A DNA stretch of 11,138 nt. Origin: a virus (taxonomy: Duplodnaviria > Heunggongvirae > Uroviricota > Caudoviricetes). Below, one piece after another: positions 2,499-11,138 of this stretch (positions are counted from its first letter, which is position 1; every line of letters begins with the position of its first letter). A model generated the notes under the pieces. That model did no database searches. It was not told the origin of the DNA and saw only the letters and a list, made by a program, of their open reading frames with translations. The stretch lies in IMG/VR virus record IMGVR_UViG_2617270964_000013, one strand, 5' to 3'. The position numbers were made by a program, and so were the translations under genes.

Positions 2499-2993
2499 TC
2501 AAAACAGCCCTTTAACGGAGCTGGCCGCGCTGTTAAGGGATGATGTGACCTTATCTTTGAAGCCGGACAGCATATCACTGAACGATGAGGATTGCAGGCG
2601 CTCCCGCAAATCCTCATCACAGCGTTCAAGAGTCAGTGAAAATTCTATCTTTTTCGCCTTACCGTAGCGATCAAACTCGGAGCGGGTCGTATTCGTTCCG
2701 GTCAGGACATACATGCCGTAAATCTGCCCGACACCATCAATCAGAGGCCAGGGGCGTCCTGTATATGCCTGCGTGGTCAGCAACGAAAGCGACACTTCGC
2801 CACCTGTAATTTCAGGATAAAGCACGCCGGAAAGCACGATGCGATCATCACCTGCGCCGATATACTGCCAGCTTGCTGAACGGTTAACGCGTTCATTTTT
2901 CACATGCCGCCAGCTTTTGTTTTGCTGTAACTGCTGATGCGGCAATGTGCGCAGCTCAAAAACAAACATGCCGTAGATCATCATCATGGCCAT
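2499..2993 (-). CDS. P2 gpU-like tail protein
   Basis: 164 aa ORF starting 6 nt after the tape-measure stop, with GAGGAG just upstream. Its size and position directly after T match P2 gene U. The start could be any of several clustered Met codons (2979-2993). Confidence 0.7.
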   Translation of the reverse strand: MAMMMIYGMFVFELRTLPHQQLQQNKSWRHVKNERVNRSASWQYIGAGDDRIVLSGVLYPEITGGEVSLSLLTTQAYTGRPWPLIDGVGQIYGMYVLTGTNTTRSEFDRYGKAKKIEFSLTLERCDEDLRERLQSSSFSDMLSGFKDKVTSSLNSAASSVKGLF

Positions 2994-2999
2994 GACTCC

Positions 3000-5816
3000 T
3001 CAATCTTTATCGTAAAAACTGCCACGTCCGGCACGGTCGCGTCGTTCCAATTCTGCCCTGACCATTTCACCGACCAGTTTCGCCAGTTCGCGGGGATTCT
3101 GCGTAACAACGTTATGCAGATGAACATGAATTTCACCGCCAAATCCGGAGACAACAGGCTCCCGGTTACGGGAAGTTGCAGGAACTGATGCCACTGGCGA
3201 TCGTATGGCCTCCGCCACCGGGCGGGAGCTGGCCGCAACAACAGGGACCAGCGCCGGAGGCAGAGGAGTCGGGACCACGGGTGTGATGTTGATTGCGGAA
3301 GCAGGCTTACTGACCTGCGCAATCTTCCGCTCCTGCCACTCCCCACGAACAGCAAGTGCGCGGGGCAGATTCTTAAAGACAATATCGCCGGGGCCAATGC
3401 GTTTTTTCGTCTCATCAACCAGCTTACCTGTGTTATCAGCAATTTTGCTGAGTCTGCGTAGCGTACCGGTATTGCTGTCTGTGAGCGGTTTGTTGTCTTT
3501 GGGTTTATCACCTCCGGTGCCATTGCCATTTTCCACAGGCTTCGGCGGATTGATTTTCGCCAGGTCCCCCTGAAGCAAGGCAACCTTGTCCTGAAGAATG
3601 GCCGCACGCTGTGCGTCTTCGATTTTCTTGCGCGCCCTTTCCGCTTCATCCGGAAGGACGCCAAGTTTTTCAAGTATCCACGCCAGCGTATCCAGTAGCA
3701 TTTTTGCAGGCGTCAGAACAAGTTGTAACGCACCGCCAAGAACGTTACCGAATATCTCGCCAGCACTGGTACATTTATCCAGCGTTTCCTTGCTGGACTC
3801 CATCGGTGACAACAGCGATTTAAACCAGTTAAACACCTGGCTGATCCCGCTTCCGATTGCGTCAAAAACAGGACCAAACCGTTCAAAGGTTTCGCGCAAC
3901 GGGGTCAGCCTTTCCATAATCCCGCTGAACACCCCGGCAAAAAATGCCTTAATGGGTTCCCAGTATTTCCAGATGAGAACCGCCGCAGCCACAAACGCAG
4001 CAGCAATCAATCCAACCGGACTGAACAGCGCCCCGATAGCGCCTCCCAGCAAAGAAACAGAACCCGTCAGCATTCCCCACAGCGCAGGCAACACCCGGAC
4101 GACATTCATTGACCGGGTAAGAATGTCAAAACCAAGACGCAGGGTGGCCAGCTTTCCGTAAAGCACCCCAATAACCAGCGACAACGAGCCAATCGTTGCA
4201 GTCATTGCCAGCAACGCACCGCCTGCTATCAGTAGCTGGCGCGTCAGTACCGGATGGGCCTGCGCCAGCGAGGTGATTTTTTCAAGCACCCGCGTGAGCC
4301 ACTGCGTGACAGAACGCAGCGGACCGTCAACCAGATCACTGATGCGAATACGAAGACCTTCCCATGCGCTGTCGAGATTTTTCAGGTCCCCATCAAGATT
4401 ATCGGCCATTACTTTTGCAACGCGATCGGCCTCTCCCCTTGCCCCCTGCAATTCTCTGGTCAGTTTTTGCAGCTCTCCTGAACCAGCCGCCGCAACAAGC
4501 GTCTGTAAACCAACGAACGCCTCTTCTCCGGCGATGTCCTTGAAGAAGGAAATCTGGTCCACCTGTCCGTATTTTTGTGTCGCCTTATAGAGATCAAGCA
4601 GCACATCCTCCATCGGGCGCATTTTGCCTCTGGCGTCAGCAACTGACACCCCCAGCTCTTTCAGTGCATCAGCCGCAGCTTTTGGCGGTGATGCAAGGCG
4701 GGACAGACTTGCGCGCATGGCCGTACCAGCATCGCTTCCGCGAAGACCATTATTGGCAAGCATCCCGGCCATGGCCGCCGCTTCTTGAAGACTGATACCA
4801 AGTTTTGCGGCAACCGGACCGGTATACTTCATGGTTTCGCCCAGCGCGCGTAAATCAGTATTGGTCCGGGTGAATGCTGCTGTCAGCGTATCGCCAACCC
4901 GGTCCATTTGATCGGCTGTCAGGTTGAACTGTGTGAGGATATTGGAGCCTATATCAGCCGTCTCGCCGAGTTCGACGCCACCTGCCAGCGCCATATTAAG
5001 AACACCGGGCAATGCGGCCTGAATGGCCTGCGGAGTAAAACCAGCCATTGCCAGAAAGCTCTGCCCACTGGCGGCATCACTCGCAGTAAACTGTGTTTCA
5101 GAACCAAGTTTTAACGCCTGCTCACGCAGCGCCTTAAACTGCGGGCTGTTTTTGTCGATTCGCGTCAGAGCCTGAACGCGGGACATCTCTTTCCCGAACC
5201 CGATCGCAGGCTGCAAAAAACGCCCGGCAGCATAGCCGCCAGCCGCTGCCGCACCAATTGCCAGCGCACCACCTGTTTTCAGTTTTCCCGCGGTTTCCTG
5301 CGCGCGCGAATACCGCTCACGCGCCCGCGTTACACGCGCAAGCGCCTGCCGTTCGCGTTCAAGCTGGTTGTTGTACTGTTCGGTGCGTCTGATGGCCTGC
5401 TGGATGGTGTTATCGCTGCCTGTCAGGGAAATGCCGTGGCGTTTCAGCTCTCCGCCAAGTTCCCGCATTTTCTGAATTTCCCGTGTGCGCGATTCATTCA
5501 GGCGTTCAAGCCGGGTGCTTAACTGCTGCATCAGCTTTTGTTGTTTTTCGCTGAGCACTGTACCCGTGCGTTGTAACTGATTAAGGGCGTTAAGCTGGCG
5601 TCGTGCTTTCACGATGCCCGCATCCGCTTTACTGACAGCGTCACGGGCGCGCTCAAATGAACGCGCCTGACGCTCGAGATTTTTGATCGCCCCCTGCGTT
5701 CGCTGGATGGAGTCACCAAACTGCCCCATCAGGCGGCGGGCGTTTTCGGCAGGCCGGGTCAGCCTGTCAACGGCGCTGAAAGCGACCCGGATATCAAGAG
5801 TCTTCATTGTCTGCAT
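3000..5816 (-). CDS. Tail tape measure protein (P2 gpT-like)
   Basis: 938 aa. Long coiled-coil-like, Ala/Leu/Arg/Gln-rich N-terminal third, hydrophobic Gly/Ala-rich central segments, and a position between E/E' and U. Its start is overlapped by the E' reading frame. Confidence 0.85.
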   Translation of the reverse strand: MQTMKTLDIRVAFSAVDRLTRPAENARRLMGQFGDSIQRTQGAIKNLERQARSFERARDAVSKADAGIVKARRQLNALNQLQRTGTVLSEKQQKLMQQLSTRLERLNESRTREIQKMRELGGELKRHGISLTGSDNTIQQAIRRTEQYNNQLERERQALARVTRARERYSRAQETAGKLKTGGALAIGAAAAGGYAAGRFLQPAIGFGKEMSRVQALTRIDKNSPQFKALREQALKLGSETQFTASDAASGQSFLAMAGFTPQAIQAALPGVLNMALAGGVELGETADIGSNILTQFNLTADQMDRVGDTLTAAFTRTNTDLRALGETMKYTGPVAAKLGISLQEAAAMAGMLANNGLRGSDAGTAMRASLSRLASPPKAAADALKELGVSVADARGKMRPMEDVLLDLYKATQKYGQVDQISFFKDIAGEEAFVGLQTLVAAAGSGELQKLTRELQGARGEADRVAKVMADNLDGDLKNLDSAWEGLRIRISDLVDGPLRSVTQWLTRVLEKITSLAQAHPVLTRQLLIAGGALLAMTATIGSLSLVIGVLYGKLATLRLGFDILTRSMNVVRVLPALWGMLTGSVSLLGGAIGALFSPVGLIAAAFVAAAVLIWKYWEPIKAFFAGVFSGIMERLTPLRETFERFGPVFDAIGSGISQVFNWFKSLLSPMESSKETLDKCTSAGEIFGNVLGGALQLVLTPAKMLLDTLAWILEKLGVLPDEAERARKKIEDAQRAAILQDKVALLQGDLAKINPPKPVENGNGTGGDKPKDNKPLTDSNTGTLRRLSKIADNTGKLVDETKKRIGPGDIVFKNLPRALAVRGEWQERKIAQVSKPASAINITPVVPTPLPPALVPVVAASSRPVAEAIRSPVASVPATSRNREPVVSGFGGEIHVHLHNVVTQNPRELAKLVGEMVRAELERRDRAGRGSFYDKD

Positions 5817-6323
5817 TCCCGCTGCGAAGTGCCGCCCGCTCGCGCCAGCTAACCACTTCGCCGGGCGTCATCATGAAGATTTCGGCGGGCGACCAGTTAA
5901 AAATGGCGGCAATATCCGCCACCAGATCTTCGATGTGCTCAAAGCACACAACCGTGATCAGGCTTCCGTCGCCTGTTCGTTCTTCCCGCCAGAGTCCGCA
6001 CCGCTCAAAAAATTTACGGCAACCACACATAACTGAATAAAGTCACGGGATGCCATTTTTTTGATCGTCACTTCATCCAGTCGCGGTGATGTCACGCGTG
6101 ACAGCAGCGTAAACATGGATTCCGCTTTCAGATTCAGCACATCAGACAGCGACAAATCTCGCAGAGATCCAGCCTGCTCAATAGCCCCGGTGATCTCCAC
6201 ATACGTGATTTTTTCGCCGCCTCGCTCAATTGGTTGGGTAAGTTTTACGCCACGCTCACTGGTTTCTTTCACAGTGTCAGTAACTACCGTGTTTTCGGTA
6301 TCGATGTTTTTCGTCTCTTTCAT
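5794..6323 (-). CDS. E+E' tail chaperone made by programmed -1 translational frameshift
   Basis: On the - strand the E frame reads GTA AAT TTT TTG AGC (..VNFLS..). A -1 slip on T TTT TTG enters the overlapping frame (..KFFERCGLWREERTG..), which stays open to the TGA at 5794-5796 and overlaps the T start at 5816. Confidence 0.7.
5958..6323 (-). CDS. Tail assembly chaperone E (P2 gpE-like)
   Basis: 121 aa ORF with an AAGGAG RBS 7 nt upstream of the ATG at 6321-6323. It lies between the tube and tape-measure genes and contains the slippery heptamer near its 3' end. Confidence 0.8.
   Translation of the reverse strand: MKETKNIDTENTVVTDTVKETSERGVKLTQPIERGGEKITYVEITGAIEQAGSLRDLSLSDVLNLKAESMFTLLSRVTSPRLDEVTIKKMASRDFIQLCVVAVNFLSGADSGGKNEQATEA
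6006..6012 (-). promoter_or_regulatory. Slippery heptamer T TTT TTG (recoding signal for E/E')
   Basis: Read directly on the - strand; the same heptamer is used in the P2 E/E' frameshift. Confidence 0.7.
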
Positions 6324-6377
6324 CAGGAAACTCCTTTCAGTCAGAGGCGACGCACTGCGCCGCCTGCATATTACTTA

Positions 6378-6890
6378 TCAGCCAAGCCCAAGCGCGGAAC
6401 GGATGCGATCAGGCACAATATCCTTGCCGTCCTTCCGGTAAATGAAGTTCAGCAGGTCAATCTCCCACAACGGACGATCGTTAACACTCAGCTTGTAGTA
6501 GGTGTTTTTAATGGCGTAAGTGTGTGATGTGGCTTCGCCCTGTTTGGCTTCCCCCATATCAATTTCCGTCACACGTCCGCGCATTTCGACTTCATACAGG
6601 TCGCTTTCTGCATCGGTGTAGTATTCACCCGCAAAACGCAGCAGCGTGCCGTCAATCGTGCCGCCATACTTAAGGAACAGCTCACGAACTGCGCCCCCCA
6701 TGACAAAGCTCGCATCAAGCGCGGAGTCGTCCAGACCGAGATCAATACTTACCGCACCCATCATGCCGCCACCCCGGTAGCTGTCGGTTTTGCGCGTCAG
6801 CTTAGGCAGAGTGACGGACGTCACCTTACCCACTTCGTTTTCACCATCCACAAACAGCGTAAAAAAGCGAAGATGTTTTGGCACAGCCAT
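6378..6890 (-). CDS. Tail tube protein (P2 FII-like)
   Basis: 170 aa. The motif VTLPKLTRK...YRGGGMMG...DLGLDD is typical of the P2 FII tube family. The ATG overlaps the FI stop (TGATG), with GGGAGG 6 nt upstream. Confidence 0.88.
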   Translation of the reverse strand: MAVPKHLRFFTLFVDGENEVGKVTSVTLPKLTRKTDSYRGGGMMGAVSIDLGLDDSALDASFVMGGAVRELFLKYGGTIDGTLLRFAGEYYTDAESDLYEVEMRGRVTEIDMGEAKQGEATSHTYAIKNTYYKLSVNDRPLWEIDLLNFIYRKDGKDIVPDRIRSALGLG

Positions 6891-8074
6891 CAGGCACCTC
6901 CCAGCACCGCAAATGCGGGTTCAAAGTATTCATCAGTAAACGTCTGGTAAAGCTCCATGTCTTCCAGCGGGGGAACAGGCGTATATTTGTAGCGAATACG
7001 CACACGCCCCTGACGTAAATCCGTGGTGCTGTTATCCACCACGTCATACCAGCACTCCGCGCCAATCAGTTTCCCGGCAGTAACCAGTGAATCCAGTTTT
7101 GCCCTGATGGCACTGATAACATCCTTCACGTTCGCAGGCGTCAGTGGACTGTCGATGGTTTCAAACTGCGCTTCCGCAATTGAATCAGCCAGCACCTGTG
7201 CGGTTCGGGTATACACCTCAAAGATGTAGGCGTTCGTTTCCGGTGTGCGGTTGCCCCAGAAGCGGAACCCGTTGCGACGAATAATGGTCGTGATTTCTTT
7301 GTTGTTGAGGCTGTTGGCATCGCTGTCTTCGGCCTGCAACGACCAGAACACATGCCTCGACATCCCCAGCACATTTTTAACCGGAACGTTGGACAGTGAT
7401 TTGTGCCATCCCTGCTCATGGTCAATGTACGCACGAAGGCCGCACGCATAGGCAGACGCGGGGAACGTTTCGTTTTTGCCACTTTTCGGGTTGTAGGCGA
7501 TGAAGTCCGGCCATAAGAGCATCACCTCACGTTCGTTGAATTTCTGGCGGTAGGTAATCGCCTCAGCCATCGTGTTACAGCCGTGACATGAGGCATACAC
7601 AAACGCGCGCAGTTTACCTGCAATCACGCACAGGGATTTTGTTACAGCCTCCGTGTCCAGCTCCGGCGCGGCCAGAATACGCGGACGGTATCCGATGCTT
7701 TCATCCTGCTCTGCAACAAGCAGCGCATACATCCCCGTATAGCTGCCGTCATCCTCAGAACCACCGATAACCAGTTGATCCTGCGTCTTTCCGTCTTCTT
7801 CTTTGTGTTCAGCCACGCGAACGACGATCACCTTTGTGCTCACCTGGTCTGCGATGGCCTTAAGCGCACGATAAAGCGTCCCCGTTGTCCCGCATTTTCC
7901 CAGCACGTCATTGACGCGGGTCAGCAGTGTTGGCTTGTTCAGCGGGAACAGCTTCGCGTCCGCATCATCCGCCGTTGCCACGATACCGATAACACTGGAA
8001 TCAACATCGTTAATCGCTGTTACCAGGTCGGTATTTTCCGTAACACGGGCACCATGAAAACGAGTTTCACTCAT
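6890..8074 (-). CDS. Contractile tail sheath protein (P2 FI-like)
   Basis: 394 aa with P2 FI-like blocks (FPLNKP, LRAFVYAS, EQGWHKSLSNV, IRRNGFRFWGNRT, YKYTPVPPLE). First gene of the - strand tail operon. Confidence 0.9.
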   Translation of the reverse strand: MSETRFHGARVTENTDLVTAINDVDSSVIGIVATADDADAKLFPLNKPTLLTRVNDVLGKCGTTGTLYRALKAIADQVSTKVIVVRVAEHKEEDGKTQDQLVIGGSEDDGSYTGMYALLVAEQDESIGYRPRILAAPELDTEAVTKSLCVIAGKLRAFVYASCHGCNTMAEAITYRQKFNEREVMLLWPDFIAYNPKSGKNETFPASAYACGLRAYIDHEQGWHKSLSNVPVKNVLGMSRHVFWSLQAEDSDANSLNNKEITTIIRRNGFRFWGNRTPETNAYIFEVYTRTAQVLADSIAEAQFETIDSPLTPANVKDVISAIRAKLDSLVTAGKLIGAECWYDVVDNSTTDLRQGRVRIRYKYTPVPPLEDMELYQTFTDEYFEPAFAVLGGA

Positions 8075-8231: not shown

Positions 8232-9329
8232 ATGACCGACACCACCATGCAATTGCTCAGTCAGGGCACAGACCCCGTGAAAATGCCGGATTTTGATATT
8301 CTCGCGGAGGGTAAAACGCTGTCAGGCGTGGCAGAGCGCCTGATGAGCCTGTCACTGACCGACAACCGGGGATTTGAGGCGGACCAGCTCACCATCACGC
8401 TGGATGATGCGGATGGTCAGTTGCAGCTACCGCCACGGGGCGCGCGCCTGACGGTTCTCATTGGCTGGAAAGGAGAACCGCTGACAGAAAAAGGCACTTA
8501 CATTGTTGATGAAATCGCTCACGAAGGACCGCCGGACAGGCTGACTGTTTCAGCCAGAAGCGCAGATTTTCGGGATGAATTTAACGTTAAACGTGAGGTG
8601 TCCTGGCATGATGTGACCGTTGAGCGTGTGGTATCCGCCATCGCTCATCGGTACGGTCTGAAACCGCAAATCAGCGAAATGCTGATGGATATCGAAATCG
8701 ACCACGCCGACCAGACCGAAGAAAGCGACATGTCCTTCCTTACGCGCATGGCGGAAATGTTGGGCGCAATCACCACGGTAAAAAGCGGTAATCTGTTATT
8801 CATCATGCCAGGCGGTGGCGTGAACGCACAGGGCCAGCCGTTGCCATCGTTCGCCATCACGCGCAGCAGTGGCGATCGCCATCAGTTCCGCATTGCTGAC
8901 CGCGAAGCGTATACGGGGGTACGCGCTTACTGGCTTGATCTTAATTACGGGAAAAAGAAAAAAGTCAGCGTGAAACGCCGCAAACCGAAAAAGGAGAAAA
9001 GCAGCAGTCGGGAAGGCGATTATATGGAAGGTGCGGAAGGCAACGTGTTTGTGTTACGCAAGACTTATCAGAACGAGCAGGCAGCAAGACGTGCAGCAGC
9101 GGCAAAGTGGCAGCAGCTACAACGCGGAGCCGCATCATTCTCCATCACGCTGGCGCGTGGACGCGCAGAACTCTACCCCGAAATGCATGGCACGGTAACA
9201 GGATTTAAAAGCGAGATTGATAATCAGGACTGGATTATTGCAAAAGCCGAGCACACCATTGATAACAGCGGCTTTACCACACAGCTTGAGCTTGAAGCAA
9301 AAATCCCGGAATGGATAGCAGAAACATAG
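8232..9329 (+). CDS. P2 gpD-like tail protein (late control protein D family)
   Basis: Start chosen at the ATG at 8232 (MTDTTMQLL..), which has a GGAGGG RBS 6 nt upstream; the track's start at 8100 has no RBS and is probably an artefactual extension. About 365 aa with gpD-like character. Confidence 0.75.
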   Translation: MTDTTMQLLSQGTDPVKMPDFDILAEGKTLSGVAERLMSLSLTDNRGFEADQLTITLDDADGQLQLPPRGARLTVLIGWKGEPLTEKGTYIVDEIAHEGPPDRLTVSARSADFRDEFNVKREVSWHDVTVERVVSAIAHRYGLKPQISEMLMDIEIDHADQTEESDMSFLTRMAEMLGAITTVKSGNLLFIMPGGGVNAQGQPLPSFAITRSSGDRHQFRIADREAYTGVRAYWLDLNYGKKKKVSVKRRKPKKEKSSSREGDYMEGAEGNVFVLRKTYQNEQAARRAAAAKWQQLQRGAASFSITLARGRAELYPEMHGTVTGFKSEIDNQDWIIAKAEHTIDNSGFTTQLELEAKIPEWIAET

Positions 9330-9499
9330 TGAGTAATTTAGACGTATTGACCCAGACTCAAGCTGGCACACTTATCTCCAGATTTTAATCTAACAATTGG
9401 CTCTATGCTAAATAGTGAGTTGTTAGCTAGTAGCATATTCTTCTTGGCTCATTTAAATAGTGCTTATGCACATTGAAGAATTAATGGTTAAAAATGAAA

Positions 9500-9526
9500 C
9501 AGCCTCATACAGAGGCTGTGATTTTG
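9500..9526. terminator. Bidirectional intrinsic terminator between gpD and the cargo gene
   Basis: Stem CAGCCTC / GAGGCTG (7 bp) with loop ATACA, followed by TGATTTTG on the + strand and preceded by the complement of TTTCATTTTT on the - strand. Confidence 0.5.
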
Positions 9527-9545
9527 TATAATTGGAGCACAGGGA

Positions 9546-10370
9546 TTATTCTTGTTGAAAATGAAGAGAACACTCTATAGGTGATTCTTCATTAAACTGT
9601 TCAAATAGCTCAATCATACGATAACGGCTAATTCCCACTATTGTTCCATCTTTTTTAAAAGACAAACCAATTCCAGCCAAAAGAAATGTTGACTCCAGTT
9701 CTTTTTTTAATTCTTGCCCCTTAGAGAAAAAATACATTGCACCACCACTCATTCCCTCTGGAGAAGGGCCTTTACTTACCTGTCCTTTATATTTTAAATC
9801 TATATTCTTAACATTGTATGTTCCTGTTATTTCAATTTTATTGAATGTTTTAACCTCGGATATTATAGTGAAATACTTGGCATTTTTAAAAAACAGGCCA
9901 TCTTCGTTAGAAGCTACCGTTTGATTTACTATTGAACTAGGGCGTTTTGTTCTGTGAATTGTTTGTGTTTTGCACCAGTTTTTAGGGAAGCCTGTCCATG
10001 CAAAATGTTTCTTATCAAATCCAATAAAATTGAAATTATCTTTAAGCGAGAAATAATTTTTCCCATCAAGTATCATATTAAAGCAATCGACAATGACTAA
10101 ATCATCTTCTTCAAAAATTCGATGTCCTATAGAGATACTAGTCAAAGCAAAAAATTCACCATCAGAACCCAGTATGTAAATATTTCTGATGTCATCTTTA
10201 TCCCTCAGAGCATGAGCAGCAAAAACCACATAGTGTGATTGCTTGTAATATATAAACGTTCCAGTCGATGAATAATTATAATCGCCTAGTTCATTTCGTA
10301 TGTAGAGCGGAATAACAAATTTTTGTGATTGTCTATCATAACTATCAGATTGATATTTAAAGTCAGTCAT
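9546..10370 (-). CDS. Predicted cytoplasmic trypsin-fold (S1/Trypsin_2-like) serine peptidase; AT-rich cargo gene of unknown role
   Basis: 274 aa. Motifs in canonical order: GTFIYY..HYVVFAAHAL (His53, TAAHC-like), EEDDLVIVD (Asp90, D-I-A-L-L-like), PEGMSGGAMYF (Ser208, GDSGG-like), then GTIVGI. The N-terminus is hydrophilic with no signal-peptide-like stretch. Only long ORF in the island. Confidence 0.6.
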   Translation of the reverse strand: MTDFKYQSDSYDRQSQKFVIPLYIRNELGDYNYSSTGTFIYYKQSHYVVFAAHALRDKDDIRNIYILGSDGEFFALTSISIGHRIFEEDDLVIVDCFNMILDGKNYFSLKDNFNFIGFDKKHFAWTGFPKNWCKTQTIHRTKRPSSIVNQTVASNEDGLFFKNAKYFTIISEVKTFNKIEITGTYNVKNIDLKYKGQVSKGPSPEGMSGGAMYFFSKGQELKKELESTFLLAGIGLSFKKDGTIVGISRYRMIELFEQFNEESPIECSLHFQQE

Positions 10371-10546
10371 TTTTTATCCATTTCCAGATGAAAGAATAAT
10401 TTCTGCTTGTTTTAATTGATAACCACAGTTTCTACCGTGCACTAATACACAGATATGCATCATAACATCGTTCAAAGCAGGCTGTTAGTTGGAATCTCAA
10501 CTTATACAACTTAGAATAGCGGCAGCACCACGTTAGGGAGGTCGCT

Positions 10547-10807
10547 ATGTTCCGTTGTCCGCTTTGTGGCGCATCTGCCCGCATCCGCACCAGTCGTCCG
10601 GAAAATGATTCAAACACTGTGCGGCAAAAGTATTACCAGTGTAACAACCTGGAATGCGGCGTATGCTTCTCAACACTGGAAGCTTTCCATAAATTCACAT
10701 CGAAACACGCCTCCGGCGTTCACTCTTCAGAAGGTATCCCGTGGCATGAGCTGCCAGCTTCACACAGGGGAAACAATCAGATGAGCTTGCCTTTACCTCA
10801 GAATTAA
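10547..10807 (+). CDS. ogr: Ogr/Delta-family zinc-finger late-gene transcriptional activator
   Basis: Starts MFRCPLCGASARIRTSR...YYQCNNLECGVCF, with Cys at positions 4, 7, 32 and 37 as in P2 Ogr. AGGGAGG RBS 5 nt upstream. Found after gpD as in P2, though separated from it by the cargo island. Confidence 0.85.
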   Translation: MFRCPLCGASARIRTSRPENDSNTVRQKYYQCNNLECGVCFSTLEAFHKFTSKHASGVHSSEGIPWHELPASHRGNNQMSLPLPQN

Positions 10808-10867
10808 CAGGCAGAATTGCCGGAGTAACAAAAAAGCGATAGATTACGCGCGGGTGCCTTTCGGCTG

Positions 10868-11131
10868 ATGGTCGGAGGGAATACCCGAAGGCCAGATGTG
10901 GAAAGGCCCCGGAAAACATACCTGTTTAACCGAGGCCCTAACCGCATTACCTTGACAAGTGAAAGGTTAGCGCCTCTCCAGAAAAGGAGCAAGTGCTATG
11001 TCGCAAAAATCGCTTACGGCCATCACGTTCTGCGTGACGGCAATCCTCATCATCTGGATGCTGCACGGTTCACTGTGCGAAATACGGATGAGCTTCTGGG
11101 GAGCGGAGTTTGCGGCGTTCTTACAGTGTAA
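10868..11131 (+). CDS. Possible Mok-like overlapping reading frame (translational coupling frame for the hok-like gene)
   Basis: 87-codon ORF in another frame, starting upstream of and overlapping nearly all of the hok-like ORF, as mok overlaps hok. No clear RBS and no recognisable protein features. Confidence 0.25.
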   Translation: MVGGNTRRPDVERPRKTYLFNRGPNRITLTSERLAPLQKRSKCYVAKIAYGHHVLRDGNPHHLDAARFTVRNTDELLGSGVCGVLTV

Positions 11132-11138
11132 GCAGTAA
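10998..11138 (+). CDS. Hok/Gef-family-like type I toxin (small membrane peptide)
   Basis: 46 aa MSQKSLTAITFCVTAILIIWMLHGSLCEIRMSFWGAEFAAFLQCKQ. It has a hydrophobic transmembrane stretch and SLCEIR plus E-x-AAF blocks resembling Hok (KSLCEIRYRDGHREVAAF). GGAG RBS 8 nt upstream. The stop codon is the last 3 bases of the window. Confidence 0.5.
   Translation: MSQKSLTAITFCVTAILIIWMLHGSLCEIRMSFWGAEFAAFLQCKQ

Follow-up and report, generated by a model that had tools for sequence, protein, structure and literature searches.

The stretch of DNA analysed here, which we call the window (11,138 nt; IMG/VR record IMGVR_UViG_2617270964_000013), is the tail end of a P2-like prophage. Between the late control gene gpD and the late-gene activator gene ogr it carries an apparently horizontally acquired, one-gene cargo cassette, and the product of that gene is predicted to be a cytoplasmic, stand-alone serine protease of the PA clan (chymotrypsin fold) with a conserved His-Asp-Ser triad. 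The D-ogr junction is a defence hotspot, at which sister phages hold known anti-phage systems. We think it reasonably likely that the protease is itself an anti-phage defence, encoded by a single gene, dependent on catalysis and normally harmless to its host, a defence or toxin function being read here from genomic context only. It is a credible uncharacterised single-gene defence candidate with an unusual stand-alone protease architecture.

A first-pass annotation of this DNA had noted that about 1.2 kb of AT-rich sequence parts D and ogr, which are neighbours in P2, and this is borne out: 1217 bp (9330–10546) separate the gpD stop from the ogr start, at 33% guanine plus cytosine (GC), compared with 81 bp in P2 itself, where the ogr promoter alone lies between the two genes. 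The left conserved flank is gpD (8232–9329, plus strand; tail/late control D protein, Pfam Phage_GPD, 2e-17; a RefSeq coding sequence in Escherichia coli TUM1880) and the right one is ogr (10547–10807, plus strand; Pfam Ogr_Delta, 5e-14; also a RefSeq coding sequence). In TUM1880, RefSeq annotates the same gene arrangement, and the prophage end adjoins ihfA. The GC content is 0.332 over 9330–10520 and 0.324 in the protease open reading frame (ORF), against 0.527 in the remainder of the window. An ORF scan of the spacer returned one long ORF, at 9546–10370 on the minus strand (274 amino acids (aa), 31.7 kDa), and no second ORF of at least 60 aa; the arms on either side hold ORFs of chance size only. 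A hairpin that resembles a bidirectional intrinsic terminator (9499–9519; 8-bp stem with five GC pairs, T-runs on both strands) stands 26 bp past the stop codon and would end the D transcript and the protease transcript alike. At the other end, about 90 nt upstream of the ATG, a consensus scan alone picks out a candidate sigma-70 promoter for the protease gene (10459–10488, minus strand; CTAACA-18-TATGAT, TG-extended). It stands back to back with an ogr promoter-like site (10489–10517, plus strand; TTGGAA-17-TAGAAT) that lies in the right arm of the cassette and faces ogr. The scan found 9 promoter-like sites in the region, compared with 6.0 ± 2.2 expected. This layout agrees with the earlier description of a single minus-strand gene between a bidirectional terminator and the ogr promoter region.

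The 274-aa protein has no match in Pfam (E ≤ 1), NCBIfam or PADLOC and only a weak, unannotated match in PHROGs; no family model catches it because it is too distant from curated families. Its clear homologues number 98, measure 270–283 aa and are nearly all labelled ‘hypothetical’, one UniRef entry reading ‘Trypsin-like peptidase’. They are spread over Enterobacterales, Vibrionales, Alteromonadales, Oceanospirillales, Pseudomonas, Burkholderiales and even Aliarcobacter, with identities that are typically near 50%. The residues that the first-pass annotation had singled out as a trypsin-like triad, His53 (VFAAHAL), Asp90 (DDLVIV) and Ser208 (GMSGGA), are present at exactly the positions it gave and in the canonical order, and all three, together with GMSGG, are invariant in an alignment of 28 homologues. 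The same alignment contains family-specific motifs, namely an N-terminal YQSDxYDRQSQRFVIPLY, KNYF at 104–107 and FxWxGFP at 123–129. The wider superfamily, examined in 89 members with identities as low as 15%, keeps His53, Ser208 and Gly209 without exception and Asp90 in at least 90% of sequences, and it retains the GxSGG motif. When 1.84 billion cluster representatives were searched exhaustively with a profile, only 174 related clusters came up. Every one of them is a single-domain protein of about 250–300 aa, or in a few cases up to about 360 aa, that lacks any fused domain; the window protein likewise ends just after the protease fold.

The trypsin homology that had been expected from Pfam searches appeared only in part. 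The query itself matches neither Trypsin_2 (PF13365) nor Trypsin (PF00089), whereas 25 of the 89 superfamily members match the former (best 1.9e-8) and 10 of 89 the latter, so that the homology is supported transitively only. A profile of the close homologues alone found nothing meaningful among Protein Data Bank (PDB) sequences. With the superfamily profile, every match at E < 0.3 was a trypsin-fold protease with the catalytic motifs aligned, and a hidden Markov model alignment with SplE pairs AaHv with nkHV, DiAil with DIAIL and GmSGg with GNSGS. Alignment by hhalign to bovine trypsin, for which an approximate sequence was used, set FAAHAL opposite SAAHCY and was not significant. An AlphaFold2 model built from the alignment (predicted local distance difference test score 89.4, predicted template modelling score 0.88) contains the two six-stranded beta-barrels of the chymotrypsin fold. 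Searched against the PDB with Foldseek, it gave 312 matches at E ≤ 1e-3, and among the matches listed chymotrypsin-fold serine proteases account for 50 of 50; model and fold search together confirm the predicted fold. Among the viral structures of BFVD it matches 3C-like or sobemo-like proteases of RNA viruses alone, and no phage protein comes closer. The highest 19-residue Kyte-Doolittle window of the protein reaches 1.16 and its first 30 residues average −0.97. By this hydropathy measure, used here without a dedicated signal-peptide predictor, there is no hydrophobic N-terminus and no transmembrane segment, consistent with the earlier proposal of a cytoplasmic protein that has no signal peptide.

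The first-pass annotation had also raised the possibility that the D-ogr junction is a variable hotspot, and a comparison across relatives shows it to be one. IMG/VR has 526 contigs that match gpD. We collected 80 loci in which gpD shares at least 98% identity with that of the window and then located ogr in each; 73 of the 80 hold both genes, with ogr 91–100% identical in those 73. The site is empty in 42 of these 73, where D and ogr stand 46–51 bp apart, and the 1.2 kb of the window is therefore an insertion relative to close relatives. The other 31 are occupied by inserts of 1015–3817 bp, which we sorted into 17 AT-rich types (GC 0.32–0.42) that have no sequence relationship to one another. 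Shedu (SduA; PADLOC, 1e-208), Thoeris (ThsA and ThsB; 6e-203 and 3e-70), bSEFIR (2e-44) and a PifA-like KAP NTPase (1e-64) are among the alternative cargoes, and it is their presence in sister phages that makes D-ogr a defence hotspot. Four more cargo types give weak or partial PADLOC matches, for example to a ParA-like protein and two radical S-adenosylmethionine (SAM) proteins; the remaining nine, the protease type included, are matched by none of the PADLOC models. The protease cassette itself is present once among the 80 sister loci and twice among 5426 complete E. coli genomes. It is thus a rare allele of a highly polymorphic defence locus and not a structural gene, and a fixed structural component, which would have told against a defence role, is not what we found.

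Two classical P2 hotspots are described in the literature, gpA-portal and Z/fun. A ‘third hotspot between a tail protein and CI’ and hotspots ‘within the tail genes’ are mentioned loosely (bioRxiv 10.1101/2024.10.15.618418). D-ogr is probably that third hotspot, and its cargo is so far uncatalogued in the literature. With 17 cargo types in 31 of 73 sister phages it is a rich site, which provides a ready list of further defence candidates.

Eleven further cassette types at this site match no established defence system (loci L032, L039, L061, L063, L066, L071, L074, L075, L085, L096 and L098). Examples include single genes of 389, 473, 478, 500 and 340 aa, gene pairs of 932 + 120 aa and of 188 + 134 aa, a ParA-like protein of 352 aa and a 252-aa protein that is alpha/beta hydrolase-like by its motifs. 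A 3.8-kb D-ogr cassette in locus L076 (6102–9918; also in L094) encodes radical-SAM proteins of 370 and 462 aa with weak matches to viperin models, a 104-aa protein and a protein with HRSHSS repeats. It resembles the His-Xaa-Ser (Hxs) radical-SAM maturase system, to which, to our knowledge, no defence role has been assigned.

Diverged but homologous arms are common to all 17 cargo types: the left arm measures about 100 nt, and the right arm, which contains the ogr promoter, about 75 nt; the arms were compared over 9330–9357 and 10489–10520 of the window and across loci L032–L098. In the window the left non-coding arm spans 9330–9498. Its first 100 nt or so are homologous to the left arms of the 16 unrelated cassettes, and it holds no ORF of at least 60 aa and no Rfam match. 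A structured RNA in the conserved left arm was considered and dropped, RNAalifold having returned zero consensus pairs. The consensus cassette is flanked by a 9-bp direct repeat, CAACTTAGA, of which empty sites have one copy, and the consensus ends, TGTATTAGTTCAGA and TCTGAACTAGTACA, match as an inverted repeat at 13/14 positions, a score that only 2 of 5000 shuffles reached. Going by these consensus sequences, the ends look like a target duplication plus terminal inverted repeats, or like a recombination core; no transposase or dedicated recombinase was found inside the D-ogr cassettes. The junction repeat is much weaker in individual cassettes, including that of the window, whose left arm contains a degenerate copy, TAATTTAGA (9334–9342), followed by the left inverted-repeat-like end (9343–9356). 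On the right, the −10 of the ogr promoter-like site overlaps the other copy of CAACTTAGA (10507–10515). The promoter-like sequence is kept in the right arms of all 17 cassette types, and empty sites have its −10 part only. P2 was ruled out as the origin of the arms, its 81-bp D-ogr spacer being unrelated in sequence.

Beyond this junction, the family is rare, unnamed and strictly single-domain, and it moves between prophages, integrative and conjugative elements (ICEs) and defence islands. We found it at 11 loci in 185,579 species genomes, on 3 IMG/VR contigs and on 3 of 72,556 plasmids, and a tblastn search of 50,697 sequenced phage records gave no protease match; all known copies of the gene are in prophages or in other integrated or plasmid-borne elements. 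Its GC content is 0.29–0.39 in every host, in loci that range from 0.36 to 0.56. In three P2-like prophages, one in Pluralibacter and two of the Aeromonas type (in an Aeromonas genome and on an IMG/VR contig), homologues sit in the gpA-portal interval, which in P2 is the canonical defence hotspot of old and tin. In Psychrobacter nivimaris (locus L017, 6280–14138) a 39%-identical homologue lies between hsdS and hsdR of a type I restriction-modification (R-M) operon, its end overlapping the hsdR start, and in two further independent contexts (three loci) type I R-M genes are adjacent or within about 3 kb. A lambdoid Shewanella prophage has a homologue adjoining hsdS-hsdM and also carries Abi_alpha; its 17-kb locus contains hsdM and hsdS only, with no hsdR. 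In Herminiimonas the homologue adjoins TIR_2, HAD_SAK_2 and type I R-M genes in a defence island. Other homologues are found inside an ICE transfer-gene cluster (Citrobacter), as a tail-module moron between the tail chaperone and tape-measure genes of a siphophage prophage (Proteus), next to a terminase gene (Gilliamella), on contigs bearing integrase or ParA genes, and in regions rich in insertion sequences (IS).

The neighbours differ each time. We found no ORF shared between contexts and no conserved flanking DNA in the 16 contexts compared, which indicates that the protease has no partner protein or RNA. Genes of about 200 aa beside the Pseudomonas syringae and Halomonas homologues were considered as partners and set aside, being unrelated to each other and absent from the window. 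An RNA partner or RNA antitoxin was likewise rejected on the unconserved flanks and on the lack of any Rfam match inside the island. These results bear on the possibility that the protease is an addiction or toxin module, which stabilises the prophage or mobile element or kills cells that lose it. Such a role would suit a family confined to mobile elements (prophages, an ICE, a plasmid-like contig, IS-rich islands), and the same prophage end has a hok/sok-type module just downstream of ogr. However, no antitoxin candidate emerged, whether as a conserved adjacent small ORF, as conserved flanking DNA or as an Rfam match in the island, and a constitutively toxic protease that has no antidote could not be maintained. 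We therefore regard an addiction module as unlikely, though toxin-antitoxin-like behaviour and defence are not mutually exclusive.

It seems slightly less likely still that the protease serves the phage, as a counter-defence or pro-phage factor that degrades host defence proteins, a competitor's repressor or host factors for the benefit of the P2-like phage while that phage is induced or grows lytically. A protease that has no sensor is easily pictured as a constitutive degrader of one target, and anti-R-M or anti-CRISPR genes are reported in the literature for 28 of 1511 P2-like phages. According to the same body of work, however, in P2 hotspots anti-defence genes are rare next to defence genes. 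The genomic contexts also point elsewhere: two homologues have chromosomal settings of host defence, a type I R-M operon and a TIR/R-M island, one lies in an ICE transfer-gene cluster, and the gene is absent from sequenced phage records. Moreover, its strand, opposite to the late genes, and its own terminator are typical of morons expressed in the lysogen.

Equally doubtful, in our view, is a lysogenic-conversion gene outside phage conflict (stress physiology, virulence), or a gene that travels along as a neutral hitch-hiker and has no current function: copies are very few in complete E. coli genomes and among species genomes alike, and P2 hotspots occasionally hold virulence cargo such as cytolethal distending toxin (bioRxiv 10.1101/2024.10.15.618418), but identity stays near 50% from Enterobacterales to Burkholderiales and Campylobacterota with all ORFs intact and full length, the protein is cytoplasmic with no secretion signal and so ill-suited to be a classical virulence protease, its hosts are mostly environmental, and repeated placement in defence hotspots is unexpected for housekeeping or virulence cargo. 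This strong conservation, with His53, Ser208 and GMSGG invariant and Asp90 nearly so, argues for a selected enzymatic function.

We return to a catalysis-dependent defence as the reading that we prefer. The gene is oriented opposite to the late genes and comes with a promoter-like site and a terminator-like hairpin of its own; in the lysogen it would be transcribed from that promoter, independently of the late tail genes. A constitutively active, broad cytoplasmic protease that has no inhibitor would be lethal, and the enzyme is therefore expected to be latent or to have very narrow specificity. In uninfected cells it would be harmless, either because it is latent or because its sole substrate appears during infection. 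When a competing phage infects, a phage product may activate the protease, or may be or create its substrate. Lit, the protease of the e14 prophage, works on this principle: it leaves EF-Tu uncut unless the T4 capsid (Gol) peptide is present. Cleavage of a phage protein or of an essential host factor would then stop phage production, the outcome probably being abortive infection. Alternatively, the protease could guard an R-M system in the manner of PrrC, the anticodon nuclease of the EcoprrI type I R-M operon, which the arrangement hsdS-gene-hsdR defines, and would fire when a phage anti-restriction protein disables R-M. This idea comes from the copy between hsdS and hsdR together with the two contexts with type I R-M genes nearby, and we take it, by analogy, as a lead for the mechanism and not as a result. 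It is tempting to speculate further, and more tentatively, that this is the first anti-phage system to consist of a bare chymotrypsin-fold protease, in which one domain of about 31 kDa both senses and executes. Such a system might be a guard of type I R-M; or its target might be a host factor of translation or replication that it cuts, as Lit does, only when a phage protein presents it.

Background from related elements favours a defence role: genes of no assigned function in P2/P4 hotspots often turn out to be defensive, as did six of eight uncharacterised P4 loci that were tested (PMC13586616), and trypsin-like proteases are established defence components (PMC12799240). Several points weigh against it. 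Literature searches by RefSeq accession, and for trypsin-like defence genes that stand alone, brought up no account of the protease family, and no family in PADLOC-DB v2.0.0 matches it at E ≤ 1. This accords with the first-pass annotation, which had recognised no named system. The promoter call for the protease gene is a weak consensus match, and several of the genomic contexts are merely IS-rich or uninformative. P2-like hotspots also carry non-defence cargo, including toxins and tail-fibre genes (bioRxiv 10.1101/2024.10.15.618418). Known defence proteases of the trypsin type are fused to a sensor and paired with a pro-effector, and the protease described here has neither; there is accordingly no obvious way for it to sense infection or to kill. 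As a kind the candidate is not categorically new: P2 hotspots are known to carry defence cargo, immunity by proteolysis is known too, and many similar candidates exist.

Other features of this prophage end are described here in their own right. The window begins with tail-fibre genes, followed by a Hin/Cin-type invertase gene (1873–2472) and then, on the minus strand, gpU, the tape-measure gene, E/E', FII and FI. The FI-FII-E/E'-T-U block (2499–8074) is opposite in strand to D and to the upstream tail-fibre genes, genes that are co-linear in P2, and the invertase gene abuts the inverted block. The inverted arrangement is fixed in 80 of 80 sister loci, and a search around the block found no long inverted repeats. 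Inversions beside invertases have been noted in P2-like phages (bioRxiv 10.1101/2024.10.15.618418). Upstream of the invertase gene (1–1845) lie convergent and partly duplicated ORFs for tail fibres and tail-fibre assembly (4–465 and 321–878 on the plus strand, 850–1272 and 1276–1845 on the minus strand), arranged as in invertible host-range segments such as those of Mu (G) and P1 (C). The very end of the prophage, downstream of ogr, has a hok/sok-type type I toxin-antitoxin module (10852–11138). It comprises an Rfam sok match at 10852–11011 (48 bits, E 3e-9, under the gathering score of 59) and a 46-aa Hok/Gef ORF at 10998–11138, which is annotated as Hok/Gef in TUM1880 as well. This module is a second accessory cargo, located between ogr and the attachment site.

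Compared with known systems, the protease cassette is closest in setting to the cargo of P2-like hotspots such as old, tin and Z/fun, which travels in the same kind of element as AT-rich cassettes with signals of their own. Reportedly, systems from P2-like phage hotspots were described by Rousset et al. and by Vassallo et al. in 2022. That cargo occupies the two classical sites, whereas the protease cassette sits at D-ogr, and the family is not among the systems described. Type II toxin-antitoxin systems differ in having a conserved adjacent small antitoxin gene, of which none was found here. PrrC shares its position between hsdS and hsdR with the Psychrobacter homologue, yet the window copy is flanked by gpD and ogr with no R-M genes nearby, and PrrC is an RNase effector where this family is a protease, so the analogy is functional only. 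The same is true of Lit, which like the window protein is prophage-encoded, single-gene, cytoplasmic, about 30 kDa and accessory cargo, but is a zinc metalloprotease (HExxH), the protein described here being a predicted serine protease of an unrelated fold.

By fold the nearest relatives are the HtrA/Deg (MEROPS S1C) and V8/Spl (S1B) proteases, at an identity of 12–18% only. HtrA, DegP and DegS have a C-terminal PDZ domain and periplasmic targeting, while the protein described here has no PDZ match, signal peptide or membrane anchor; HtrA and V8 are periplasmic quality-control or secreted enzymes, and this one is predicted to be cytoplasmic and is found on mobile elements. Within immunity, modules that combine a trypsin-like protease with a metallo-beta-lactamase-fold (MBL) pro-nuclease are known from Hachiman, Avs2/AVAST, Lamassu and defence-associated reverse transcriptase (DRT) systems (PMC12799240; bioRxiv 10.1101/2025.09.03.673762), and trypsin-like proteases are also established in gasdermin/CARD defence systems. 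The trypsin-MBL modules share the trypsin fold with the protease described here, for which the trypsin-HamA chain 9wh1_A is a weak PDB sequence match (E 0.026). In those modules, however, a sensor protein (HamA, Avs, LmuA or a reverse transcriptase) carries the protease as a fused domain, and the protease activates a pro-effector, a gated MBL-fold nuclease or another, whose gene lies beside it, whereas the present family is single-domain throughout and has no second ORF or conserved neighbour beside it. For want of both a fused sensor and a paired pro-effector, we do not count the protease as a member of the trypsin-MBL modules; what it may share with them is the principle of proteolysis as an immune output. 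If the defence reading is right, a minimal serine protease domain would suffice for sensing and effector function, unlike the proteases of Hachiman, Avs and Lamassu, and it would offer a small model, easily mutated (S208A), for how proteolysis stops phage and for whether defence proteases guard restriction systems.

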